Positions 2,105 through 37,563 of a stretch of DNA of 64,000 nt are shown piece after piece. Numbering within the stretch: the stretch's first letter is position 1; each line of letters starts with the position of its first letter. Origin of the DNA: Escherichia coli (GTDB lineage Bacteria > Pseudomonadota > Gammaproteobacteria > Enterobacterales > Enterobacteriaceae); the NCBI RefSeq assembly GCF_011045215.1, contig NZ_CP049202.1. One strand, given 5' to 3'. Below the pieces are notes generated by a model. The model made no database searches and had not been told where the DNA came from. It was given only the letters and a program-made list of their open reading frames with translations. A program made the position numbers and the translations under genes.

Positions 2105-2395
2105 TCAATAGACTGCGTGAATATCGATGGTTGCACCACATGCCTGAGCATATCTTGTCAAAGTTTTCATACTGGCTCCTAAAGGATTACTTTCCAGCCG
2201 GCTGATGGCTGACGGGCGTACCCCCATTCGTTCGGCCAGCGCTGACTTTGTTAACCCCGCTTTTTCTCTCATTTCGTACAACATTTCTACCATCTCCAGT
2301 TCTTTATCGGCATCTTCATAGCCTTTGACAGCTTCCGGAGTATTAAGCAGTTTTTGCTTTACCTGGCTGAACGGAACACCTTTTACTTTCATCAT
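2105..2395 (-). CDS. higA: HigA-like antitoxin, XRE-family helix-turn-helix
   Basis: 96 aa with C-terminal HTH (LTKSALAERMGVRPSAISRLE); 4-bp overlap with the upstream toxin gene. Confidence 0.7.
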   Translation of the reverse strand: MMKVKGVPFSQVKQKLLNTPEAVKGYEDADKELEMVEMLYEMREKAGLTKSALAERMGVRPSAISRLESNPLGASMKTLTRYAQACGATIDIHAVY

Positions 2396-2703
2396 TTCAT
2401 CTCCTTCAGGCGCATCCTGGCGATTTCAATAGCTTTTGTTGGTGTCTTTTGCGTCTTTTTCACAAATGCATGCAGCAGATAGATTTCATTACCCGTTGCA
2501 TAAGCGTACAGTGTCCTTGCGACATTTTTATCCCCGACTCTCAGTTCAAAAAGTCCTCCACCAATTACACGGCTGTGAGGCATTTTCATTTTATTGCCTT
2601 CCTGTTCCAGCCGTTCAATCAATCTGGCCATGCGACCACGTAGATTATCTGGTAATTCAATCAACTCATTCAGTGCGGCCGGGTGAGTAATCACATTAAA
2701 CAT
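2392..2703 (-). CDS. higB: HigB-like toxin (RelE/ParE superfamily), toxin-first operon
   Basis: Start at internal ATG 2703 with GGAGG Shine-Dalgarno; about 103 aa; toxin-upstream/antitoxin-downstream order typical of higBA. Confidence 0.65.
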   Translation of the reverse strand: MFNVITHPAALNELIELPDNLRGRMARLIERLEQEGNKMKMPHSRVIGGGLFELRVGDKNVARTLYAYATGNEIYLLHAFVKKTQKTPTKAIEIARMRLKEMK

Positions 2704-2800
2704 ATTATAGCCTCCGAAAGGATAAAATACATCAGAACAGGAAAATTGCACAAATATAAAATTTCACTGATAAGTGAAACACATGTTAAGTACAGTTTTG

Positions 2801-2913
2801 ATGCCGCGTCAGCGGCATGGAAGGCGGCACTCCGTTGTAGCATATGGCGCAGGAGTAAAACCGCCGAAGCCCGGCGTAAGCCGATACTGATTGATAGATT
2901 TCACCTTACCCAT
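2801..2913. repeat. conserved ~115-bp structured element, copy A (second copy at 34460-34582)
   Basis: 38-bp and about 57-bp blocks nearly identical to copy B, separated by an 18-bp variable segment; begins with hairpin TGCCGC-GTCA-GCGGCA. Confidence 0.6.
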
Positions 2914-3057
2914 CCCCGGCCCTTGTATGTAATAGGACTCGATGGCTAGCTACCATCATATGAAGCAGAGTGAGCTTGTCCCAGCCCTGAACAGTCAGAC
3001 TTTGATTAGCAGCAAAAGCCCTCTGCTGTAAGCGTCAACGGAGCACCGTATTGACGC

Positions 3058-4650
3058 TTATTTATTGGTGAGAACCACGTTCCATGGCAGGAGTTCGTCA
3101 ACACGGTTGGAGGGCCATTCCGGCAGTACGCTCAGAATATGGCGCAGATACGCTTCCGGATCGATACCGTTCAGACGGCAGGTGCCGATCAGCCCGTATA
3201 GCAGTGCACCACGCTCGCCGCCGTGATCGCTACCGAAGAACACGTAATTTTTCTTTCCAAGACAGACTGCACGAAGCGCTCTTTCCGCTGTGTTATTGTC
3301 CGTCTCCGCCAGTCCGTCATCACTGTAATAACAGAGGGCGTCCCACTGATTCAGTACATAGCTGAACGCTTCGCCCAGTCTGGATTTTTTCGACAGCGTG
3401 CCATTCTTCTCCACCATCCATTCATGCAGCGACGTCAGTAACGCTTTGCTTCGCTGCTGTCTGACTGCAAGACGCTCTGACTCTGGTAATCCCCGTATCT
3501 CATCCTCGATGGCGTACAGTTCACTGATTCGCTTCAGGGCTTCTTCTGCCGTCGCACTTTTGCTGCTGATGTATACATCGTGGATTTTTCTCCGGGCATG
3601 GGCCCAGCACGCAACTTCTGTCAGCGCACCACCTTCACGTTCTGCACTGAACAGCCTGTCATAACCTGTGAACGCATCCGCCTGCAGGATACCCCGGAAG
3701 GGGCGGAGGTGTTGCTCCGGGTGTTTCCCCTGCCGGTTCGGTGAGTACGCGAACCAGACCGCCGGAGGAGATGACGAACCCGCATTGCGATCATCCCGGA
3801 CATACGTCCAGATGCGCCCTGTTTTCGTCTTTTTCAGGCCCGGTGCCAGTACCTTTACCGGTGTGTCGTCAGTGTGAAGCTTGCGGGTATTCATCACATA
3901 ACGGTACAGGGCATCATTCAGCGGTGTCATTAACTGGCAGCACGCGTCAACCCAGTTGGAGAGTAATGCACGGCTCAGTTCGACACCCTGTCGGGCAAAG
4001 ATTTCACTCTGACGATACAGTGGCAGGTGTTCGCAGTATTTTCCCGTTAACACGCGGGCAAGTAATCCGGGGCCCGCGATACCACGCTCTATCGGGCGGG
4101 ACGGCGCCGGTGCTTCAACGATGCAGTCACATTTTATACAGGCTTTTTTTACCCGTTCTGTGCGGATCACTTTCAGGGCGCTGCTCACCAGTTCCAGTTG
4201 TTCTGCACTGACTTCCCCCAGATAATCCAGCTCACCGCCACACTCCGGGCAACAGCTTTCTTCAGACTCCAGACGCTGTATTTCACGGGGAAGGTGTGCC
4301 GGTAACGGACGACGATGGCGCGACTGTCGCAACTGGCGGGGAACCTGTGGATCGTCTTCCCGCCCACTGTAACGATCGCTGTCCTGTTCGCGTTGTTTCA
4401 GCAGGGCCTCAGCCTGTTCAACTTCACGACGCAGTTTTTCAGAACGGGTACCGAACAGCATCCGGCGCAGTTTTTCTATCTGAGCCCGCAGATGTTCTAT
4501 TTCCCGTTCATCTTCTTCGATCTTTTCTTCGGCACGTGCCAGTGCAGAGCGCAGGAAGGCCTCCGTCTCTTCAACCAGACTCAGTTGCTGGTCTTTCTGG
4601 CGGAGCTGGCTTTCCAGTTCTGCAATGCGAATGAGGTATTTCTGACTCAT
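3058..4650 (-). CDS. tnpC: IS66-family transposase TnpC
   Basis: 530 aa; leucine-zipper N-terminus, CxxC zinc motifs, KYxEHLPLYRQ motif, DDE region, C-terminal LPWN. Confidence 0.9.
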   Translation of the reverse strand: MSQKYLIRIAELESQLRQKDQQLSLVEETEAFLRSALARAEEKIEEDEREIEHLRAQIEKLRRMLFGTRSEKLRREVEQAEALLKQREQDSDRYSGREDDPQVPRQLRQSRHRRPLPAHLPREIQRLESEESCCPECGGELDYLGEVSAEQLELVSSALKVIRTERVKKACIKCDCIVEAPAPSRPIERGIAGPGLLARVLTGKYCEHLPLYRQSEIFARQGVELSRALLSNWVDACCQLMTPLNDALYRYVMNTRKLHTDDTPVKVLAPGLKKTKTGRIWTYVRDDRNAGSSSPPAVWFAYSPNRQGKHPEQHLRPFRGILQADAFTGYDRLFSAEREGGALTEVACWAHARRKIHDVYISSKSATAEEALKRISELYAIEDEIRGLPESERLAVRQQRSKALLTSLHEWMVEKNGTLSKKSRLGEAFSYVLNQWDALCYYSDDGLAETDNNTAERALRAVCLGKKNYVFFGSDHGGERGALLYGLIGTCRLNGIDPEAYLRHILSVLPEWPSNRVDELLPWNVVLTNK

Positions 4651-4680
4651 GGCCGTTTTTATAATGCGGTCAGGAGTTTT

Positions 4681-5031
4681 TTACAACATTGTCAGTGAGT
4701 TAAGGCGGGATGTTTTTGGCTGACGCCAGTCCAGCTTATCGAGGAGCATTGCCAGTTGCGAACGGGTAATGGATACCTTGCCGTCACGTACCGCAGGCCA
4801 GATAAACTGGCCTTCCTCCAGGCGTTTGGTGAACAGGCACAGACCATCAGCATCAGCCCAAAGAATTTTAACGGTGTCACCCCGTCGGCCACGGAAGATA
4901 AACAGGTGACCGGAGAAGGGATTAACATTTAACACATGCTGTACCTGTTCACCCAGCCCGTTGAAAGACTTACGCATATCGGTTATCCCGGCAACGAGCC
5001 AGATACGGGTACCGGATGGGAGTGAGATCAT
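4681..5031 (-). CDS. tnpB: IS66-family TnpB (Orf2)
   Basis: 116 aa, conserved IS66 Orf2 sequence (WLVAGITDMR...LFIFRGRRGD). Confidence 0.9.
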   Translation of the reverse strand: MISLPSGTRIWLVAGITDMRKSFNGLGEQVQHVLNVNPFSGHLFIFRGRRGDTVKILWADADGLCLFTKRLEEGQFIWPAVRDGKVSITRSQLAMLLDKLDWRQPKTSRLNSLTML

Positions 5032-5447
5032 CTTCCCCTCCCGGTCAGTTCACGAATCAATACAGTGAGCAGCTCTGGTGAAGGATTTTCCAGTGTCATG
5101 TTACCGTGACGGAACTCCACCTTGCAGGAGCTGGCACTGACAGTAGTCTGAGTGGATAAGGGCGGAGTAAGAGCAGCCATCGGTTCTTTCGGCTCATCAG
5201 GCGTTATCTCTACAGGTAATAATTCAAGGCCTGCGTCAGAAGTGGTTGTCACCGGAAGACGCCGTGATATACGCCCTTCGTTTTGCCAGAGTCTGAGCCA
5301 TTTGAAAATAACATTATCATTGACGCCATTTTCTCGTGCAATCTGAGCCACACAAGCACCGGGTTGTGATGCCAGTTCAACCATACGAAGTTTGAATTCA
5401 TTCGAATACTTTTTACGAGGTTCTTTTCGCCAGTCCTGTAATTCCAT
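5028..5447 (-). CDS. tnpA: IS66-family TnpA (Orf1), HTH protein
   Basis: 139 aa; 4-bp overlap with tnpB; motif GACVAQIARENGVNDN. Confidence 0.85.
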   Translation of the reverse strand: MELQDWRKEPRKKYSNEFKLRMVELASQPGACVAQIARENGVNDNVIFKWLRLWQNEGRISRRLPVTTTSDAGLELLPVEITPDEPKEPMAALTPPLSTQTTVSASSCKVEFRHGNMTLENPSPELLTVLIRELTGRGR

Positions 5448-5532
5448 ACTTAGATGTCCGTCTGTGTCAGATGGGCGTCTAAGTTACCAATTCTTGTCTA
5501 ATGGCTACATACGGCGGTCGGTTTACGCTTAC

Positions 5533-6179
5533 GTATTTTTTCCACAGGACGTTCACGGATGAACTTCTCAATGCGATAAAGACCCGCGATTTTTCTCAGC
5601 GCCATGGCTGCACGGGGCTCCCTGCTGGCCTTATACAGACTGGCGAAGCCGCGTCTTGCGTGGCTCCAGCAACAGGCGGATGTGATACCGGGGTGATTAT
5701 CCGCCAGAGATTTGTACACGCTGTATCCGTCACTCACCAGCGTGCCACCACGCCAGCCCTGCAGGCAGGCCTCAGGATATCTGAGGGCCCGTCCGGTCTG
5801 CGAGTCAAGACAGACGACCGGCGGGCCGCTTCTTTCTCCGCTGACGTAAGCCCACAGCCAGCCGGAGCAGGATTTACCGCCTTTCCGGGTATCAAGGAGC
5901 CTCAGGGACGTTTCATCTGCATGAATAACATCCCGTGTCAGAAGCTCGTGGCGTAACAATTTTGCCAGCGGGGCCAGTGCAGCGCCAGCAACACCGACCA
6001 TATCCGCCATTGTACTGACGGGGAGCTCCACACCCATTCGGGAGAAAATGTGCTGCTGGCGATACAGGGGCAGATGGTCGGTATATTTGCTGATGACAAC
6101 CTGTGCGATGACCGATGGCTCAACAGCACTTTTCGGAAGGATATGTGCCGGCATTTTTCCGCTGAACACTTTCTCACAG
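5533..6179 (-). pseudogene. IS66-family transposase TnpC fragment (central region) of a third, disrupted IS66-family element
   Basis: Translation ...[22 protein letters not shown]...ACCWSHARR... aligns to residues about 190-400 of TnpC; bounded by IS66 copy 2 target duplication on one side and the IS66 copy 1 terminus on the other. Confidence 0.7.
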
Positions 6180-6209
6180 GTAAGCGACTCGTCAGAACCG
6201 TATTGATAT

Positions 6210-7781
6210 TTACTGAGAGCTCAGATCAACTTTCCAGGGCAACAGATCGCGTACCCGGTTTGCCGGCCAGTCCTGGATATGTTCAATGACGTAACGCAGC
6301 CACTTTTCTGGCTCCACATTGTTCAGACGGCATGTGCCGATCAGCGAGTACAACACCGCCGCATGTTCACCACCGCTGTCGGAACCCGCGAACATCCAGT
6401 TTTTCCGGCCTACGGCCACTCCCCGTAAGGCGTTCTCTGCGATGTTGTTGTCGATTTCCACCCAGCCATTACTGCAGTACACGTTCAGTGCATCCCACTG
6501 TTTCAGCAGGTATGCGAACGCTTTTGCCGTATCTGAGTGACGCGACAGTGTTTTCATCTGTTGCTGTATCCAGTCATACAGTGACTGCATCAGTGGCGCG
6601 GCTCTGGCTTTTCTTGCCGCCAGACGCTGTTCTGCTGAACAGCCCCGGACCTCTGCCTCGATGGCATACAGTTCACCGATACGCTGCAGGGCTTCCGTGG
6701 TGATGTAGGTGGGCGCTCTTGCATGCACATCGTGGATTTTTCTCCGGGCATGAGCCATACACGCGGCTTCCGTTATTCTGCCGGATTCGTATAACGCCCG
6801 GTAACCACCGTAAGCATCGGCCTGAAGCACACCGCTGTAACCGGCCAGGTGATTTTGTGGATGGATACCTTTCCGGTCCGGACTGTACGCGAACCAGACC
6901 GCCGGGGGCATCTGTGAACCGGCGTTACGGTCATCACGGACGTAGACCCACAGCCGGGCTGTCCGGGTTTTACCGCTGCCCGGCTCCTGGACCGGGACGG
7001 GGATATCATCGGCATGGAATTTACCGGGCATCAGCACATACTGGCGCAGTACGTCATACAGCGGCTCCAGCAGTTCAGCAACAGCACCTGTCCAGCGCCC
7101 CAGTGTGGCACGGCTCAGCTCCACTCCCTGACGACGGTATATTTCTGACTGGCGGTATAACGGCAGATGGTCTGCATATTTCCCGGTGACAACATGGGCC
7201 AGAAGCCCCGCTCCGGCATAACTGCGTGCAATGGGTTTTGAAGGTACTGGTGCCTGCACGATATGGTCGCACCGGCAACAGGCCTGTTTCGGACGTTGTG
7301 TTTCGATAACCTTAAAGGCGCTGCTGATAAGCTCCAGTTGCTCTGACACATCACATCCCAGAGAACTGAGTTCACCACCACAGGCAGGACAGCATTCCTC
7401 TTCCGGCCGGATAACCCGGGTTTCACGGGGAAGTGAGGCCGGTAACGGTTTACGGGCTGAAGACTGGCGCAGGGCGGATGGCAGTACCGGGTCATATTGC
7501 TCACCCAGCGTTTCCGCCATTTCTTCCTGAAGTGCGCTGATTCGCTCCTGTGCTTCCTGTATCTGCCGTTCGGTTTTTGCACGAAGTTTTTCTGAGCTTT
7601 TACCGAACTGCATACGTTGCAGTTTCGCAACCAGCGCCTTCAGCCGGTTGATTTCGGAAGCATAAGCCGCCACCCGCTGTGAGAGCAGGCGGTTGTATTC
7701 AGCCATCTGGCGGATGGTGTCCTGTTGCGTCTGCAACAGTGCCCGCAGGCGGGCGTTCTCATGAGCAAGTGAGGTGTCCAT
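6210..7781 (-). CDS. tnpC: IS66-family transposase TnpC
   Basis: 523 aa, colinear with the copy 1 TnpC ([12 protein letters not shown]-terminal LPWK). Confidence 0.9.
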
Positions 7782-7800
7782 ATCCTCACTTTACAACGGG

Positions 7801-8148
7801 TTATATGCGGATTCCAGCGCGTTCCGTTCGTTTCGGGTGCTTCCAGTTGATACCTTCAAGAAGCATGGATAACTGAGCCGGAGTAAGGTGCACCTTGCCG
7901 TCACGGGTGACTGGCCAGACGAAGCGGCCCCGCTCCAGGCGTTTGGTGAAGAGGCACAGTCCGTCACTGTCAGCCCACAACACTTTTATCTGGTCACCCC
8001 GGCGTCCGCGGAAGATGAACAGGTGTCCGGAGAACGGGGCATCCTTCAGGACGTTCTGAACTTTTGATGCCAGGCCGTTAAAGCCATTTCGCATATCGGT
8101 GATACCTGCAACCAGCCAGATACGCGAACCTGCAGGGAGAGATATCAT
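7801..8148 (-). CDS. tnpB: IS66-family TnpB (Orf2)
   Basis: 115 aa, WLVAGITDMR...LFIFRGRRGD. Confidence 0.9.
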   Translation of the reverse strand: MISLPAGSRIWLVAGITDMRNGFNGLASKVQNVLKDAPFSGHLFIFRGRRGDQIKVLWADSDGLCLFTKRLERGRFVWPVTRDGKVHLTPAQLSMLLEGINWKHPKRTERAGIRI

Positions 8149-8825
8149 CAGTGGCTGCTCCCTTTTATTTCGCGGATAAGTGTCTGTAATAACGCCGGCG
8201 TCAGTTTACCTTTAAGCCTGAGAGTTCCGGCCGGCAGAACCAGCTCACAACACAGACTGTCGGACGGTGTATTTATCTGCTCTGGTTCCTGTGCGGGGGC
8301 CGGGATTTTATTATCCGGCTCCGGCGTTAACGTCACGGGAAGCAGTGCCGGCATATTTTTTCCGGAAGGCAGCAGGCCACCTTTCCGGTATTGATGGCGC
8401 CAGTTGAAGAGCAGGTTATCGTTGATTCCGTTTTCCCGGGCGATCTGCGCCACACAGGCTCCGGGCTGCAGTGACTGCTCCACTAAGGCGATTTTAAACT
8501 CATAAGGGAAGTTGGGCCGCCGGGGACGTTTTTTTACCACGGGGGCTTCGGATATAACGGTGCTTTCAGGACGTACGACTGGTACCGTGGAAAATTGTCC
8601 GTAAAGGCAGGCATCAAGTTCCTGCTCCGACATGCCTGCGGGCAAAGGCCACGAAAGGCCAGCTCTCCGAAAGCGCACGAACATACTACAAACTGTTGAT
8701 TTTGGTACACCCAGGCGACGCCCGGCCACAACCCGGGGTAAATGTTCTTCAAAGTGAAGACGTAAAGCTTCAGTGATCCAGGTCCGGTGTTTCATACGAT
8801 AGTGTCCATTAAAAATGATGGACAT
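8148..8825 (-). CDS. tnpA: IS66-family TnpA (Orf1); true start probably internal
   Basis: C-terminal half matches IS66 Orf1 (GACVAQIARENGINDN); ORF-track N-terminal extension of about 80 aa is uncertain. Confidence 0.65.
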   Translation of the reverse strand: MSIIFNGHYRMKHRTWITEALRLHFEEHLPRVVAGRRLGVPKSTVCSMFVRFRRAGLSWPLPAGMSEQELDACLYGQFSTVPVVRPESTVISEAPVVKKRPRRPNFPYEFKIALVEQSLQPGACVAQIARENGINDNLLFNWRHQYRKGGLLPSGKNMPALLPVTLTPEPDNKIPAPAQEPEQINTPSDSLCCELVLPAGTLRLKGKLTPALLQTLIREIKGSSH

Positions 8826-8878
8826 TATTTTTGTAGAGCCGGAGGAAACAGACCAGACGGTTTAAATGAGCCGGTTAC

Positions 8879-9332
8879 TCTCACAGCAGGGACAGCTGTA
8901 CTGCGGACGGACATAGCGGTGGACCACAACCTGTGCGGGGATATATTCCATTTTCCCGCTGACTTCATCGCGAATGAAGTGCAGGGGGGCATCACAGTCA
9001 GGACAACGTTCCTCAGCTGGCGGGATAACCTTTTCAGCACGGGGAAGATGTGAAGGCAAGGGCTTACGAACAGGACGTGTTGTTGTTTTTTCTTCGTCCC
9101 CGGTCTGAGGAAGCAGTTTGTCCAGATACGCCGAGATTTCTGCGATATCCGCGTCAACATCCTCTTCGAACAGGGAACACTGCATCCCGGCCAGCGATTC
9201 GCATTTTTTACCAAAACGCTGCTGGCGTGCGAGCTTCATCTGCTCTATATGAACGCATCCCGTTTGCAAGGCTTTCGTAGTTTTGACATTGACGGTAGGT
9301 TGCAGCTCTATATCCGGCCTTGTTGCAGCCAT
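8879..9332 (-). pseudogene. IS66-family transposase TnpC N-terminal fragment (same disrupted element as 5533-6179)
   Basis: ...KLARQQRFGKKCESL...KPLPSHLPR...CPDCDAPL...YSCPCC matches the TnpC N-terminal region; interrupted by IS66 copy 2. Confidence 0.7.
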
Positions 9333-9517
9333 GAAGCTGCGGGCCCCTATGTAATACGCTGACTCGCGCCTTATTCTCCCAGCGAGCTTTAATCTCCAGA
9401 GCAGATTCAGGTTTAGCGAGTCCCGGTCTTACCTGTCGTTGTCATCACTACGGCTGCCCACGCAACCTTTCAGCATTCACCCTTTTGTAAAGAGTTTATG
9501 TTTATCGGTATCAGCGA

Positions 9518-10504
9518 TTAATAAGGCCTGATACTGACATGATTTTTGTCGTATTTACGTCCGTGAGCGGCTATTGCCCACACCGTTCGCGCCAGCTTGT
9601 TTGCCATTGCGACGATTGCCACGCTGGCCGGACGACGTTTTTTCAGTTCGGTTATCCACGGCCCAGGTTCTTTGGTCAGTAATGCTGCCGCCCTTGCACC
9701 ATGAATAAACAGGGTTCGCAGATATTTATCACCACGTTTGCTTATTCCCAGCAGGCGGATTTTTCCTCCTGAGCCTGTCTGTCTGGGCACCAGACCAACA
9801 TAAGCCGCGAACTCTCGCCCTGATTTAAACACTGATGCTTTCCCCATGATGGCCAACGCTGCCGTTGCAATAAGTGGACCAACGCCAGGAATATCCAGCA
9901 ACCGTCTACAGGTTTCATTCTGTCTCGCCACACTGGTAAGCTGTTTTTCTATATCATCTATCAGTGAGTCCAGTTCATTCAGCCTGTTGTACTGATTTTC
10001 CAGCACTGTAATGAGATACAGTGGCAGTCTCTCTTTCATCCGCTCCAGTGCTTCAGGGAACTCCCGTTCCATCGCTGCCCGACCTTTGTGGATGGTTTCA
10101 CCAAACTCCAGTAACGTCCCGTGCAGGGCATTAATTTGCGCGGTCCGGAACTTCACCAGTTGTCTGCGGGAACGGTGCAGAACCAGTATTGACTGTTGTT
10201 CTTCTGTTTTGACGGCGATTTCTTTACCTGGCTGCTGTACCGCCATCCAGATAGCTCGCGCATCCATCACGTCATTCTTATTGCCCATGACGAATGCTTT
10301 AACGAAGCGAGCCTGCAACAACCGGACTTTGTGTCCCTGCTTTGTTAATTCACGCGCCCAGTGCCGGGAGCCTCCACAAGCTTCCATGCCAATCAGGCAG
10401 GGTTCGCGGTTACTGAAATACGCCAGAAAATCCTGACGACGAACCTGCTTATCCACCACTTCCCCTGTGTGCTCATTGATGAAGTGAACCTGAATGACAT
10501 GTTT
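9518..10504 (-). pseudogene. IS110-family transposase, 3' part (codons about 13-340), separated from its 5' end by IS21 insertion
   Basis: ...LIGMEACGGSRHWARE... and C-terminal motifs of IS110/IS1111-type transposases; the ORF-track N-terminal 18 codons derive from the IS21 terminus. Confidence 0.75.
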
Positions 10505-10605
10505 TGTCAGCGCCAGTGATATAAGACGGTAATTCACCATTTGGATTGTCCGCTCCACCCAACATGTTGTTTCCTTAAGGTTCTCACACCAGAAAGGACA
10601 TCAAC

Positions 10606-12575
<1,970 letters not shown>

Positions 12576-33031: not shown

Positions 33032-33769
33032 TTAAGAAACTCTGCTTCTTTGATAAAGCTGGCTGATTATACTTACAACAGCTATACTTTTAGTTTTCTC
33101 CAAAAACTCTTCAGGCACAAATTTTTCTGAACTAAGTTCATTTTGGAGTAATGTAACAATCCTTGCTGTTTTATCTGCATATTTTTGCCATTCATTTTTT
33201 AATTCCTTAACACTCTCCTTACGCAATTCAATATCTGCATTAAGTTCGTTAACTGTCATTTTCAAAATTGATATGCTTCTCTCCAGTTGCTCATACTCAG
33301 ATTTAAGCAAAGCAGTATTAAGTTTTTCACGTTTTGCTATCTCTTCCTGCATCACCAGTTTTGTATCCTGGACAGATTGAGCTAACTTCTCAGCATTTAT
33401 CGCTTCCACTTTTTTATCTGCCGTTTCCTTCTGCATCTCATATTCAGCTATCAATGACTTTTTAAATCCTTCACGCTCCTTTGCTTCTAAATATCGTTTT
33501 GTCCATGCAATCCCATAATTTAAATATGGTGATATGACGGACAGAAAAATGCCTACTGTGACAGGAGCTACTAAATACAACCAATAGAACTTTTCAGCAC
33601 TTGTGATTTGCTCTATACGGGTAGTCACTGATGATTTACTCATAAACAGGATAGCCAGGTTTTGCCAGTTAAAGCCACACCATGAAAGGGTTATGTATCC
33701 CCATAATGGCTTTTTCAGACGCTCCTTAACAACGTCGTTTACAGAATCTGTGATTGACTCATTATTCAT
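33032..33769 (-). CDS. hypothetical membrane protein: two N-terminal transmembrane helices plus long coiled-coil
   Basis: ATG 33769 with GGGGGA Shine-Dalgarno; hydrophobic segments near residues 22-45 and 60-82; E/K/L-rich heptad region; about 33 percent GC. Confidence 0.6.
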   Translation of the reverse strand: MNNESITDSVNDVVKERLKKPLWGYITLSWCGFNWQNLAILFMSKSSVTTRIEQITSAEKFYWLYLVAPVTVGIFLSVISPYLNYGIAWTKRYLEAKEREGFKKSLIAEYEMQKETADKKVEAINAEKLAQSVQDTKLVMQEEIAKREKLNTALLKSEYEQLERSISILKMTVNELNADIELRKESVKELKNEWQKYADKTARIVTLLQNELSSEKFVPEEFLEKTKSIAVVSIISQLYQRSRVS

Positions 33770-33846
33770 TTAGAAATCCCCCTTTAACTTTGTCTCTATC
33801 ACTTACAGGAAAAGAGCCGTCGGAAAGAAAACTGCTGATTGAGATA

Positions 33847-34140
33847 TTATTTCATTCGCTCACTGGCAATATTATAAACGTTACACCGCTCTCGTTTCCC
33901 TACAGCAATCACCCATATAACAATTTCTTCATCAATGACCTTATAAATAAGCCTAAACCCAGATGCTCTCAGTTTTATTTTAAAACATCCAGCTAGATCA
34001 CCATGAAGCCTGGCAGCACCAGTGTAAGGATTATGCTGTAGTTTTCTGAGTTTCTTTTTAAACTGGTCACGTATTGTCTTGTCCAGCTTATTCCACTCTT
34101 TAAGGGCCCTTTCGTCAAAGTCGATATTAAAGGTCATCAA
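33847..34140 (-). CDS. relE: RelE-family toxin
   Basis: 97 aa; ...FDERALKEWNKLDKTIRDQFKKKL...CFKIKLRASGFRLIYKVIDEEIVIWVIAVGKRER close to E. coli RelE as recalled. Confidence 0.8.
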   Translation of the reverse strand: MMTFNIDFDERALKEWNKLDKTIRDQFKKKLRKLQHNPYTGAARLHGDLAGCFKIKLRASGFRLIYKVIDEEIVIWVIAVGKRERCNVYNIASERMK

Positions 34141-34381
34141 TATTCACCCTGATGCGTCTGGCAGGATTTTTCAGTCGTTCTCTGACAATATTCAGAATAT
34201 CTTCGTCCTCATCATTATCACTGACAACAACAGACACTTCATTGAAAGGGAGTTTTTCATTTTCAGCGACATAACGGAGAAAAAGGCGGAGAGCTTCTGA
34301 AGGTGAAAGATTGAGCTTTTCGAAGACCTGCCAGGCATTTTTCTTCAGTTCTTCATCGACACGAATTTGAACAGTACTCAT
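34127..34381 (-). CDS. relB: RelB-family antitoxin
   Basis: Start ATG 34381 with GGAG Shine-Dalgarno; MSTVQIRVDEELKKNAWQVFEKLNLSPSEALRLFL...; overlaps relE start. Confidence 0.75.
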   Translation of the reverse strand: MSTVQIRVDEELKKNAWQVFEKLNLSPSEALRLFLRYVAENEKLPFNEVSVVVSDNDEDEDILNIVRERLKNPARRIRVNIDDL

Positions 34382-34459
34382 GATAATACTCCGGTAATAA
34401 AGTATGCAGGCAGTATATACGTGAACAGATGTAATGACAAATGTATTGACATGTGACCT

Positions 34460-34582
34460 ATGCCGCGTCAGCGGCATGGAAGGCGGCACTCCGTTGTTTC
34501 ATGTGATACTGGTGTAAAACCGCCGAAGCCCGGCGTAAGCCGGTACTGATTGACAGATTTCACCTTACCCATCCCCAGCCCT
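34460..34582. repeat. conserved ~115-bp structured element, copy B (copy A at 2801-2913)
   Basis: See copy A; lies 79 bp upstream of the relB start. Confidence 0.6.
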
Positions 34583-34779
34583 GCCAGACTATACCCGCTT
34601 TCAGCTATGAGAGAGCTTCTGTGCGCGGTCGGAGTGGTCCCGACGAGGGTTTACCCGAAGTCGGGGCGTATCTCCGCGTTAGCGGGCCGTCAGGGCCGCT
34701 TACGAGCGTGTACACGATACGTCCAGCCAGAAGACTGACAGCGATGATGATGTAGTTACAACATTCATAATTAAAAGCG

Positions 34780-35258
34780 ACTCTGTTCCGGCCCTTTGGG
34801 CCGGGGCGGGGCCGCTTTTCAGTTATGAGGGATGGGCACGGTGTTTCAGAACTGTGTCTGTCGGGGCCCGCCGCTTGCGGTGGGAGGTGCTTTTAAATTC
34901 TGAGCGGCGCGGCTTTGGCCGCTGCAAGCGAAGGCCTTTTTGTATTTGTTCATAGACGTTTCAGAGATAAAGACTTTCCCTGCGGTGGAACAACGCAGGG
35001 GATTAAATGAAGGGGGTAAGACTATATTGCAGGTTTGCTGTTTCAGGTTTGCAGCTTCTTAAAGTTCTTTGTTTGCGGATTTATGTGGATAACTGAAACG
35101 ACGTGGCCACGTTCTGACGACCGGTGAGAGATTTTATGGCCGTGTATGGACGGATGTGGGGATTTCAGGTGGTTACGGGGGATTTCTGGCCGGACAGAAC
35201 CTGCGCCAAAAGCCCCGAAGGGGCTGGCGATGATTCAGTGCTGAAGGAATGGTGTTGT
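34780..35258 (-). other. oriR: IncFII-type vegetative origin region (oriR-like), immediately downstream of repA
   Basis: Position downstream of repA as in R100/R1; GC-rich dyads and DnaA box present. Confidence 0.45.
35084..35092 (-). promoter_or_regulatory. DnaA box (TTATCCACA on minus strand)
   Basis: Exact consensus 9-mer, 167 bp downstream of the repA stop. Confidence 0.5.
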
Positions 35259-36281
35259 CTAGTGCGGTGGCGGGGCAGCCAGCGTCAGTTCAAGCTGACG
35301 CAACTCCCTGATGGCCAGTCGCTTCAGATGGTCATCGGAACAAAAATAGGCTTCATCCGGCGGCAGACGCTTCCTGAGATACTCTGCCATCTCATGAATC
35401 TGCTGGTCGGCAGGCAGTTTCTTCAGGCGATTAGCACGCTTACAGGCTGCAGCTTTCGCCCGACGGTGTTTCAGCGCATCCTGGCTGCGCTGCAGATACC
35501 AGCGTTTTCTGGCCGCATGTACGGAGATATCTTCATCCTCACGCAGTACACCTTCCCGGATGAGCTGCTGGCGGATTTCACTTTCACGCAGCCGCTTCTG
35601 CTGCTGTTCGTGAAGTTTAACCATATCGACGCCCAGCATCTGCCACCCTGCCGGTGTTATCCAGACATAGCGCGGCAGACGCTGGCGGGTTTCACGGTCC
35701 CACATCGTTTCTTCCGACACACCCAGCACACCAAAACGTACCTGTTCGGTCAGCAGACGGGAAAGCCGGGAGACCGTCACTTCCAGTTCCGGAATAACCT
35801 TCCCCTTGCTGTCTTTCGGGCTGATTTCTCTGGCCAGACGGGAAACACTCATGCCTACGGTATGTGTGCCCGCATCACTGAAGCTGACCAGAACCGGCCA
35901 GATGGCATCGAGGAGGCGTTGTTTTTCCGGACGGAAAGCATATTTGCGACCGGCGAACGTCCGTTTCTGCACGTAAAAAGGATGCAGAGACATGTGCATG
36001 CGCAGGCTCTGTTCGCCAGTCACCGGGTCCTTTTTCACCAGGCGGTGATAAGCGTGCCCAAGCTGCCCGCTCAGCGCCTTATAGCGCGCAGGACGATACC
36101 AGGTCGGATTTTCGCATTTGGGTTTAGTGGAGTGCTCACCACGACGACGCTTTGTGCGCTTCCTTTCCGGTTCAACCAGGAAAGTGGTCGCCCTTCCCGC
36201 TTCATAATCTTCCCAGAAACGGATTTGCTCTTCGGGAGGCAACTGAGCCCAGTGGCCTGGACGGGTATTTTTAATCACCAT
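35259..36281 (-). CDS. repA: replication initiator RepA (IncFII RepA superfamily), about 340 aa
   Basis: ATG 36281; internal blocks align with R100 RepA1 ([13 protein letters not shown] / [25 protein letters not shown] / ITRATRALTFLSE); basic C-terminus; oriR and DnaA box downstream. Confidence 0.7.
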
Positions 36282-36804
36282 ACCCACTCCGTAAGACAGC
36301 CAGACGTGCTTCAGTCAGCGCCAACGGAAATATCCCTAAAAACTCAAAAAAACGAGGCGTCAGCGTTATTGTGCAGCGCTTATTGTAAAAATCTGATGAC
36401 GGGGAACAGACTATAAACCCAAAATCTTCTTCCAGTGATTTAATTGCTCTGACAGCTCGCTCAATGGCTAAATGACCATGAGCATTTTTTCTGGCTAATC
36501 CGCAATCAAGTGCAAGTTCGGTTATAGAACGATGCACTTGATTTGAAACAGGATCGTAGTAGAAGCACATGCCTTGCAACAGTGCATCAATAGCTCTGCG
36601 ACGAAGAACGGAAGGCTTGCGTTTACGTTTACCATTAGCGCGCGCGCACGCAGAAGCTATATCGAATGCAAATGTTTCGGTAAACCCCACCGCTTTGCCC
36701 ATTAGCTTCTCACAGAACGGCAGCGTCCTGGCACCTTCACGGGGTGTGAATACCGGATTAGGGTTCTTTACCTGACGGTAATACGTTTGTTGAAGATCAG
36801 TCAC
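36271..36804 (-). CDS. RepA1 N-terminal-domain homologue (about 177 aa), truncated; status (pseudogene versus coupled leader ORF) unresolved
   Basis: [42 protein letters not shown]...[20 protein letters not shown]... closely matches the R100 RepA1 N-terminus as recalled; stop TAA overlaps the repA ATG (ATGGTGATTAA). Confidence 0.5.
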
Positions 36805-36853
36805 ACCATCCTGCACTTACAATGCACAGAAGGAGTGAGCACAGAAAGAAGTC

Positions 36854-36882
36854 TTGAACTTTTCCGGGCATATAACTATACT
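36854..36882 (+). promoter_or_regulatory. sigma70 promoter for copA antisense RNA (-35 TTGAAC, 17-bp spacer, -10 TATACT)
   Basis: Near-consensus hexamers at 36854-36859 and 36877-36882, facing opposite to repA. Confidence 0.5.
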
Positions 36883-36888
36883 CCCCGC

Positions 36889-36981
36889 ATAGCTGAATTG
36901 TTGGCTATACGGTTTTTAGATGGCCCCGGTAATCTTTCTAGCTCGCCAAAGTTAAAGAAGATTATCGGGGTTTTCACTTTT
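36889..36981 (+). ncRNA. copA: CopA-like antisense RNA (replication copy-number control)
   Basis: About 92 nt between the promoter and a U-tract; 13-bp stem CCCCGGUAAUCUU/AAGAUUAUCGGGG with a loop containing CGCCAAA; position between repA2 and repA1 as in IncFII. Confidence 0.55.
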
Positions 36982-37104
36982 CTGGCCCCTGTAAATCCAC
37001 ATCAGAACCAGTTCCCTGCCACCTTATGGTGTGGCCAGCCATAAAATTCCTTAAACGATCAGCAATCTATCACTCACGCCTGAGATAAGCAATAATGTGA
37101 ATAT

Positions 37105-37362
37105 TCACGAAATCGCTCTGCGTTTCAGCTCTGATTCAATCAGTTTTTCAAGCATCTGCGCCTGGGTAATACCTTCCTCATCCGCCAGTTCACTCAGCCT
37201 GTCTTTTAACCGGGCCTGGATAACCGCATGAAAAGCCTTATGAGTGTTGCTTCTGCGAGCCAGAGAAGCTCTTTGTCTCTCTCTGGCCGGAACAGGGTTA
37301 CCTTTCCGGTATGCACGCTTAGTGCCTGATGAGGAAGTCACTGCATTTTCTGTCTGCGGCAT
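37105..37362 (-). CDS. repA2: RepA2/CopB transcriptional repressor of repA
   Basis: 85 aa; [11 protein letters not shown]...[19 protein letters not shown] parallels R100 RepA2; position upstream of copA and repA1. Confidence 0.8.
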
Positions 37363-37432
37363 CTCGCCTCCTCAATACTCAAACAGGGATCGTTTCGCAG
37401 AGGATACTACAGTTTTTTTTAATCAGCGACTT

Positions 37433-37563
37433 GAAAGTTGTGACGATGACATGTGTTGGCGCACAAATCATGTCTGATTACGACCGTTTAATGTGATTTT
37501 GATAATGAAATGACTGAAAAGCAGGAAATGCCTTAACCTGTGTGCCCCCGGGCGGGGCTGGCG
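37433..37563. repeat. about 130-bp direct repeat, copy 1 (repA2 upstream region)
   Basis: About 90 percent identical to 38553-38676; the two copies bracket the GNAT/RHH toxin-antitoxin module. Confidence 0.7.

Follow-up and report, generated by a model that had tools for sequence, protein, structure and literature searches.

The 125-nt element that occurs twice in the window, the 64,000-nt stretch of Escherichia coli DNA analysed here, is in all likelihood the G site of IncFII-family (IncFII / I-complex) replicons, a single-strand initiation sequence (ssi) of the G4 type at which priming depends on primase. We place the probability of this reading at roughly 0.88, on the basis of the position, orientation and features of the element and of published descriptions of such sites. 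The initial annotation of this DNA rightly noticed the element but wrongly attributed it: it is an already known component of the replicon, and it represents no new biology.

Ungapped comparison of the two copies (2801-2925 against 34460-34584) gives 112 identities in 125 positions, both on the + strand, a similarity far above chance which confirms the second copy reported at 34460 by the initial annotation. The two near-identical blocks described there are likewise found, with block 1 (positions 1-38) agreeing at all 38 positions and block 2 (positions 57-122) at 63 of 66. The 18-bp core that separates them (positions 39-56), however, does not differ completely, as had been stated, but is of equal length in the two copies and agrees at 10 of its 18 positions. 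Similarly, copy A does not end at 2913, but rather about 10 nt further on, at approximately 2923-2925. Beyond the two copies, identity is at background level (19 of 60 nt on the left, 21 of 60 nt on the right), and their homology therefore ends abruptly on both sides. A search of the window with a covariance model of the element returned these two copies only, copy B with 158.5 bits and copy A with 153.8 bits. Megablast located the 125-nt element at 5530 places, distributed over at least 5000 plasmid records that come for the most part from Escherichia, Klebsiella, Shigella and Salmonella. The earlier view that the element is functional, structured and conserved rather than a relic of duplication is upheld. 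Its parts, and the features that surround both copies, are listed in Table 1.

Table 1. Positions of the two copies of the element, their parts and neighbouring features in the window
Feature	Position	Strand	Remarks
Copy A	2801-2925	+	Orphan G-site candidate; same orientation as copy B
Copy B	34460-34584	+	Replicon-linked G-site candidate
5' hairpin, ATGCCGC-GTCA-GCGGCAT	Copy B 34460-34477; copy A 2801-2818	+	7 bp
Middle stem-loop	Copy B 34482-34524; copy A 2823-2865	+	Base stem GGCGG/CCGCC
Variable core	Copy B 34498-34515; copy A 2839-2856	+	Inside the middle stem-loop
Start-proximal hairpin, CCGGC-GTAA-GCCGG	Copy B 34530-34543; copy A 2871-2884	+	Apex GCGTAAGC
CTG	Copy B 34546-34548; copy A 2887-2889	+	Putative primer start triplet
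3' tail, ATTGACAGATTTCACCTTACCCATCCCCAGCCC	Copy B 34549-34581; copy A 2890-2922	+	Pyrimidine-rich, about 33 nt
Toxin-first TA operon	2105-2703	-	Toxin 2392-2703, HTH antitoxin 2105-2395; distal neighbour of copy A
IS110-family left-end remnant	2926-3028	+	103 bp; right boundary of copy A
IS66-family element	3029 to at least 5031	-	End GTAAGCGTCAACGG at 3029; truncates the IS110 remnant
IS66 genes	Transposase 3058-4650; TnpB 4681-5031	-	NCBIfam IS66 transposase and IS66 TnpB
relBE operon	33847-34381	-	relB 34127-34381, relE 33847-34140; distal neighbour of copy B
Predicted relBE promoter	34440->34412	-	TTGTCA-17-TATACT, 10/12 matches; outside copy B
Ter-like site, AATTATGAATGTTGTAACTACAT	34750-34772	-	Between oriR and copy B; core GTTGTAAC at 34755-34762
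DnaA box, TTATCCACA	35084-35092	-	Marks oriR
repA, IncFII-family initiator	35259-36287	-	ORF; tblastn finds 4517 plasmid records
CopA-like antisense RNA	36889-36979	+	Rfam RF00042, 97.5 bits; belongs to the replicon of copy B

The window is a segment of an F-type conjugative plasmid, as shown by Rfam matches to the traG antisense RNA, sok and CopA and by ORFs of tra size on the - strand. Read leftward, it carries in order CopA, repA, the DnaA box, the Ter-like site, copy B, the predicted relBE promoter, relB and relE. RepA is 94-95% identical to RepZ-type proteins by tblastn, and the true start of its gene probably lies near 36254, the closest tblastn match (99.1%) beginning at residue 12 of the ORF. 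The same DnaA box has been reported downstream of repA1 in IncFII replicons, and stbDE, an operon of the relBE type, follows repA4 in an IncFII plasmid (PMC2762410). In addition, ter sites have been reported in the repA4 region of IncFII plasmids, and in another plasmid of this group the repA4 region is needed for stable maintenance, with tir-pemIK coming next (PMC4398462).

Copy B ends 674 bp beyond the repA stop codon, on the strand opposite to repA, and its CTG lies 536 bp from the DnaA box of oriR. When positions 32500-37500 of the window were compared with the best-matching plasmids, homology to the replicon began at 34455-34459 (query positions 1956-1960), which is the left edge of copy B, and from this edge it continued through repA and copB. 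The conserved basic replicon therefore has its outer limit in the element, and the variable cargo past it begins with the TA cassette. Within this arrangement, copy B is the putative working priming site of the IncFII-family replicon of the window.

The closest characterized counterpart lies in R100, at positions 90394-90518 of the record, to which copy B is identical at 119 of 125 positions. This segment is located 724 bp past repA1 and before tir-pemIK, is the only match of the model in 44 kb of R100 (record positions 50000-94281), and is taken here to be the published G site(R100). Masai and Arai (J Biol Chem, 1989) reportedly showed that primase suffices to prime the leading strand of R1, and that it does so at a G site located some 400 bp beyond oriR, and Bernander et al. 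(EMBO J, 1992) are said to have mapped the leading-strand start in vivo. A catalogue of the ssi signals in F, R6K, R100 and ColE2 is attributed to Nomura et al. (Gene, 1991). Tanaka et al. (Plasmid, 1991) reportedly found the ssi signal of ColIb-P9 close to its origin, and Jiang et al. (J Bacteriol, 1993) are reported to have assigned the start of the leading strand to a place shortly ahead of pemIK, by the 3' end of repA4. G site(R100) is further said to consist of two conserved, essential domains, each bound independently by primase, and a dispensable middle domain (a finding attributed to Tanaka et al., J Bacteriol, 1994), and reportedly, again from Tanaka et al., its resemblance to the phage sites is slight and confined to the surroundings of the primer start. 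The two near-identical blocks fit this two-domain pattern, as does the diverged core between them, which in distant members is replaced and altered in length. Every measured feature agrees with these descriptions of G sites, and it is on this agreement that the identification is founded.

For the analysis of secondary structure, a covariance model was built from seven close copies, and the alignment of its 17 matches was used to assess pairing. Pairing extends to 95% of the cells in this alignment, and both sides have changed in 10 of the 22 pairs; these counts are biased toward the model structure, to which the alignment was fitted. None of 500 shuffles came up to these figures, and sliding the 3' partners lowered pairing to 28-48%. 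The 5' hairpin is 100% paired in the 17 members, and three of its seven pairs are changed on both sides; Citrobacter, for instance, carries the compensatory form ATGCGCC/GGCGCAT. The base stem of the middle stem-loop is also 100% paired, with four of five pairs changed on both sides (ACAGG/CCTGT in Yersinia, GGCGCC/GGCGCC in Klebsiella). The inner part of this stem is 74% paired, and its interior varies in sequence and length. The structure and covariation analysis, which had been proposed earlier as a check, therefore reveals two hairpins that keep their pairing through compensatory changes. The stem of the third, start-proximal hairpin is invariant across the family, and in copy A its last pair is C.A. 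A competing, terminator-like hairpin on the - strand, CGCCG..CGGCG, was considered and rejected, since its pairs do not covary and three of the five are broken in Yersinia, where the base stem is rescued.

Folding of the DNA predicts the same three hairpins, with modest z-scores of -1.3 and -1.9 on the + strand, and the z-scores of both strands do not single out either one. The pyrimidine-rich 3' tail is conserved as far as the Klebsiella and Citrobacter copies, and it is a putative contact for primase or SSB.

Mini-hairpins of exceptional stability arise in DNA from the sequences GCGNNAGC and GCGNAGC; the primase primer site carries GCGAAAGC in G4 and GCGTTAGC in St-1 and alpha3, and its mini-hairpin does not bind SSB (reviewed by Kimoto & Hirao 2026, PMC13037366). 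In the present family, one of these two motifs is found at the apex of the start-proximal hairpin in all but one of the 17 members, despite a change in loop length. The variants at this position are GCGTAAGC, which is the form in copies A and B, GCGTCAGC, GCGTAGC, GCGCAGC and GCGAAGC. The apex of the 5' hairpin fits one or the other motif in 12 of the 17, and the background frequency of the mini-hairpin motif is 68 per 128 kb of window strands. In both copies, a CTG follows the start-proximal hairpin at a distance of 2 nt on its 3' side. Across the family, such a triplet lies within 2-10 nt of the hairpin in 11 of 17 members and is absent from the homologous place in six, and replicon-proximal copies without a CTG exist.

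A comparable arrangement is found in G4, where hairpin I has the apex GCGAAAGC and the CTG at which the annotated primer (3970-3997) begins lies 3 nt beyond this hairpin. A BLAST search of copy B against 50,697 phage records yielded chance-level short matches, none of them to G4-like phages or microvirus, and the covariance model found no match in the G4 oric at E <= 1. With filters turned off, the third hairpin of the model matches hairpin I of G4 (3975-3986, viral strand, 12 nt, 4.9 bits), yet with E = 1.6 this is far from significant. The element thus appears, from its sequence, to be a functional analogue of the G4 origin and not a homologous member. In common with the complementary-strand origin of G4 (and also of St-1, alpha3 and phiK), it would present approximately three hairpins on SSB-coated single-stranded DNA, a GCGNNAGC apex close to the start, a CTG 2-3 nt to the 3' side, and a primer that is read back into the hairpin. 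In contrast, there is no homology beyond the hairpin apex and TACTG, the sizes of the hairpins differ, and G4 folds more strongly, with a z-score of -5.1 as compared to -1.3 to -1.9.

Established knowledge of R1/R100 and of G4 suggests how the element would act. RepA would open oriR and DnaB would unwind the DNA downstream of it, and on the + strand, now single and coated with SSB, the GC-rich hairpins of the element would stay folded. DnaG primase would bind the folded element directly and would begin its RNA primer opposite the central T of the triplet just 3' of the start-proximal hairpin, which is T34547 in copy B. The near-identical blocks would then be the parts that primase needs, whereas the core, as the interior of the middle stem-loop, would be free to drift. 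The folded strand is opposite to the coding strand of repA, and is the template for synthesis leading away from this gene; a primer that begins at the CTG and proceeds in the 5' direction of this template is extended away from oriR and repA. Pol III would extend it as the leading strand, leftward in the window and co-directionally with the TA genes. Unidirectional replication of R1/R100 proceeds in that same direction, away from repA.

Comparison with the G site of R1/R100 shows agreement in sequence (91-95% identity to R100), in distance from repA (674 bp versus 724 bp in R100) and in strand. The neighbours are also the same, namely the DnaA box of oriR, a Ter-like site and a TA operon beyond, as are the two conserved blocks around a variable middle, which are reported for G site(R100) too. 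The six positions at which copy B departs from R100 lie mostly in the core; furthermore, copy B is directly followed by relBE and not by tir-pemIK, and copy A is detached from any replicon. For the ssi of I-complex plasmids, reported close to the origin of ColIb-P9, the correspondence is that the element lies 714-721 bp past repA/repZ in IncI-gamma/K1, IncK2/Z and IncI2 plasmids; the transfer genes of the window, in contrast, are F-type. RSF1010 ssiA/ssiB and the Frpo-type ssi are likewise signals in plasmid DNA at which a folded single strand initiates synthesis, but neither is related to the element in sequence. The RSF1010 signals are read by the plasmid's own RepB' primase and not directly by DnaG (PMC13037366), while Frpo-type signals, also not read directly by DnaG, are promoters that express leading-region genes from single-stranded DNA (bioRxiv 10.1101/2022.07.06.498992).

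The genomic context of the element was examined at 22 other loci, comprising the surroundings of IncFII-family repA genes (sampled by tblastn from 99% down to 27% identity), eight loci that were picked solely because they resemble the element, as well as R100, pVir68 and four early matches. At 18 of the 22, the element is located 539-898 bp past the stop codon of an IncFII-family repA, and always on the opposite strand. These replicon-linked loci belong to IncFII, IncFIC, IncK2/Z, IncI-gamma/K1 and IncI2 plasmids and to plasmids of Klebsiella, Enterobacter, Citrobacter, Pantoea and Yersinia, and the element is kept with RepA proteins of as little as 33% identity. The distal neighbour is a TA operon in eight loci, with several differently annotated types among them, and tir followed by pemIK in four. 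At the other 10 it consists of unrelated genes or IS with no annotated TA, in PLSDB gene tables that are incomplete, and these include every sampled plasmid from Klebsiella, Enterobacter, Citrobacter, Pantoea and Yersinia. The recurrence of the element beside TA modules or an IncF oriR, which had been put forward for verification by BLASTN, is thus borne out for IncFII-family repA (18 of 22) but only in part for TA genes, which adjoin in 12 of 22 (four of these via tir) and are not annotated in the rest. TA cassettes are common distal neighbours in plasmids of the E. coli group, and they are absent in distant replicons that keep the element. Most likely, the element belongs to the replicon and the TA genes are merely frequent neighbours.

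Copies detached from a replicon account for three of the eight loci in the unbiased sample chosen by similarity, and for four when locus L004 is added; all four keep a TA neighbour, as copy A does. The first 50 kb of the F plasmid contain no copy of the element, and IncL/M replicons yielded no convincing copy, but rather weak matches of 8-11 bits together with a GCGTAGC-CTG hairpin downstream of repA. Tandem copies were observed at locus L015 and, around an IS, at L004/L005. A query for the corresponding empty site, made by joining copy c1 to c2 without the IS110, matched with both halves to one and the same G site.

Copy A is identical to the R100 segment at 114 of 125 positions and to the copy of an IncK2/Z plasmid at 119. 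No replicon lies beside it, and IS elements occupy the place where one would be expected. The IS110-family remnant at its right boundary aligns closely with the sequence that comes after the G site in plasmid loci L004/L005 and runs on into the gene of an IS110-family transposase. Beyond the IS66-family element there are further genes of the IS66, IS110 and IS21 families. One of these, the IS110-family gene at 9518-10558, was considered as kin of the remnant and dismissed as unrelated, given that it is only 23% identical to the L005 transposase (186 residues aligned). An IncFII-family repA lies 726 bp from the element in pVir68, where the same higBA-like operon is also present, an arrangement that shows the state of copy A before the loss of its replicon. 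Insertion of an IS110-family element and then of an IS66-family element would have separated copy A from any replicon, and copy A would have stayed together with its higBA-like neighbour throughout the rearrangement. No plasmid in PLSDB covers at least 80% of window positions 2700-3060, and the combination seen in the window is hence a mosaic. Copy A resembles copy B in kind, and appears to be an orphan, a putative G site left behind by IS-mediated rearrangement.

The operons that adjoin the two copies are of different families. The toxin at 2392-2703 is Gp49/HigB-like (Pfam PF05973, 3e-27), and the antitoxin at 2105-2395 has matches to HTH antitoxin-type families that all fall under the curated cut-offs of these families; the homologues of this operon in pVir68 are annotated as a RelE/ParE toxin and an HTH regulator. 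The relBE genes match the NCBIfam families RelB/DinJ (2e-35) and RelE/StbE (3e-9). The ATG of relB, at 34381, is 78 bp from copy B, and the probable ATG of the higB-like gene, at 2703, is 97 bp from copy A, in line with the spacing of 80-100 bp given in the initial annotation.

This spacing, together with the TA neighbours at 12 of the 22 loci, raises the question as to whether the element could be an operator or promoter module shared by the adjoining TA operons, as was initially proposed. Such a role is very improbable. The predicted relBE promoter and a palindrome upstream of the higB-like gene, TTTCACTTATCAGTGAAA, both lie in TA-specific DNA outside the element, and neither copy contains a sigma-70-like site. 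A single operator for the various kinds of TA found beside the element (Phd/YefM-ParE, RHH-RelE, yacAB, pemIK, higBA-like and, in the window, relBE) is implausible, and 10 of the 22 loci retain the element with no TA annotated beside it. The suggestion that the element is a small RNA, or that it acts in cis as an RNA structure (for instance as a terminator, or as an insulator separating the replicon from the TA genes), draws on the covarying helices, yet covariation fits RNA and single-stranded DNA alike. There is also a weak terminator-like hairpin, CGCCGGGCTTCGGCG followed by GTTTTA on the - strand, but this is the structure rejected above in favour of a competing stem that compensatory changes preserve, and its T-run is just 4 nt long. 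As neither copy is covered by an Rfam match, either at the gathering score or at E <= 10, and no promoter-like site drives the element, an RNA function is scarcely credible.

More can be said for a recombination joint that exchanges TA cassettes, possibly alongside priming. Homology breaks exactly at the left edge of the element in many plasmids, with varied TA cassettes beyond; tandem copies occur at L015 and L004/L005; and both the mosaic makeup of the window and the TA neighbours kept by all four sampled orphans are consistent with exchange. However, no dedicated recombinase is linked to the element and nothing shows site-specific breakage, while an abrupt edge would also be expected from selection on a functional replicon boundary beside variable accessory DNA. 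Since 125 bp at 90-95% identity is enough for ordinary homologous exchange, recombination is unsupported as the function of the element, and we regard a dedicated joint as improbable. It remains to consider an IS or MITE terminus, suggested by the IS sequences that copy A abuts, or a short protein-coding gene, several RefSeq records annotating a 'hypothetical protein' of 46-62 aa across the element. Yet the IS110-family sequence begins only after the element, copy B, R100 and pVir68 have no IS on either side, and there are no terminal inverted repeats matching an IS end. Furthermore, the lengths of the members (121, 123, 124 and 125 nt) are not multiples of three apart and the core is swapped wholesale, so that no reading frame is conserved. 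Either explanation is almost certainly wrong. The initial annotation had itself allowed that the element might prove to be part of an IS terminus or of the repA4 sequence; the latter is essentially the case, and the former is not, though the right boundary of copy A is an IS junction.

If the element is a G site, as appears likely, two linked possibilities arise, one for the orphan copies and one for the 3' tail. Both copies are antisense to the tra genes, which by the textbook polarity of F transfer places them on the transferred strand, and orphans may serve to prime the complementary strand on this strand after conjugation. The conserved 3' tail may be a natural target of IS110-family elements, which are guided by bridge RNA. 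Two unrelated IS110-family members were found inserted 12 nt apart in the G-site tail. A combined proposal, in which the outer edge of the G site is a preferred joint for TA swaps, orphan units of TA plus G site survive because they retain some function, and the tail is an IS110-family target, is unlikely to hold.

The element is present in at least 5000 plasmids of the Enterobacterales, where it is either unannotated or hidden under a spurious 'hypothetical protein'. The varied TA cassettes seem to share an upstream element because they occupy the first position past the replicon, as parD/pem does in R1/R100. Where the element is recognized, it shows at which point the IncFII/I-complex basic replicon ends on its outer side and in which direction replication proceeds, and orphan copies flag the sites at which a replicon has been lost or displaced.

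Across the G site, the 125-base putative primase priming signal found past repA/oriR of IncFII-family replicons, the RefSeq/PGAP annotation of many plasmids places 'hypothetical proteins' of 46-62 aa, examples of which are included in the table. These were considered as genes, but the lengths of family members differ by numbers of bases that are not multiples of three, which argues against the G-site ORFs being genes.

Features at and around G sites in the window and in plasmid loci used for comparison (L handles, each with its own coordinates)
Feature	Locus	Coordinates	Strand	Remark
'Hypothetical protein' across G site	L001	2988-3155
'Hypothetical protein' across G site	L019	2509-2649
'Hypothetical protein' across G site	L024	2484-2651
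'Hypothetical protein' across G site	L026	2463-2651
Tandem G sites	L004	4001-4123 + 5309-5429
Tandem G sites	L005	4001-4125 + 5311-5431
Tandem G sites	L015	4183-4306 + 4322-4445
IS110-family insertion at G-site tail	window	2926-3028
IS110-family insertion at G-site tail	L004/L005	4126-~5310
IS110-family insertion at G-site tail	L025	~2612-4100
IS110-family transposase ORF	L005	4329-5339		TGA 5337-5339
Weak G-site model match	L013	1390-1450	- relative to repA	8-11 bits
Weak G-site model match	L014	3630-3790	- relative to repA	8-11 bits
Perfect palindrome TTTCACTTATCAGTGAAA	window	2730-2775	-	between copy A and higB-like start codon
IS pile-up	window	3029-12575		right of copy A
IS66-family element	window	3058-5031
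Second IS66-family set	window	5498-8825		one transposase gene truncated
Unrelated IS110-family gene	window	9518-10558
IS21-family gene	window	10606-11778
ORF next after IS21-family gene	window	11775-12575
Ter-like sequence AATTATGAATGTTGTAACTACAT	window	34750-34772	-	between oriR and copy B
RepA	window	35259-36287

Within the G site, two unrelated IS110-family elements whose transposases share 27% identity lie in the pyrimidine-rich 3' tail, with insertion points 12 nt from each other. The junction ...CCCCRGCCCT/TGTATG is common to the window, L004 and L005, while the second, ...CACCTTACCC/CCGTTAC, occurs in a Shigella dysenteriae plasmid that likewise has a higBA-like operon on the opposite side. 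The tail may be a preferred IS110-family target. In L005, the transposase ORF extends 29 nt into the adjoining G-site copy. Either the ORF reads through into the target, or the true end of the IS is to the right of where homology would place it.

In some plasmids the G site is present as a tandem pair, spaced by 15 nt in L015 and with an IS110-family element between the copies in L004 and L005. In the latter two loci, ACGTATTG replaces ACTGATTG in the copy across the IS from the TA operon, which therefore lacks the CTG; the copy adjoining the TA operon keeps it. The CTG-less copy of L005 is the repA-proximal one.

No clear G-site copy was found in the IncL/M replicons (L013, L014), and the weak matches to the G-site model lie ~230-390 bp past repA. 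The same region contains a CCGCGTAGCGG mini-hairpin followed 2 nt on by CTG, which together may constitute a distant functional counterpart of the G site.

Copy A, the orphan G site of the window, is bordered on its right by a pile-up of IS elements. The palindrome on its other side falls outside the repeated element and is likely the antitoxin operator.

Near copy B, the replicon-linked G site, the Ter-like sequence contains the GTTGTAAC core, with the conserved G present at position 6. Identity of the window RepA to RepZ-type initiators of IncI-gamma/K1-like plasmids is 94-95%; its match in one 74-kb E. coli plasmid is 99% identical. As F-type transfer genes are present in the window despite this RepZ-like RepA, the plasmid looks like a replicon/transfer mosaic.
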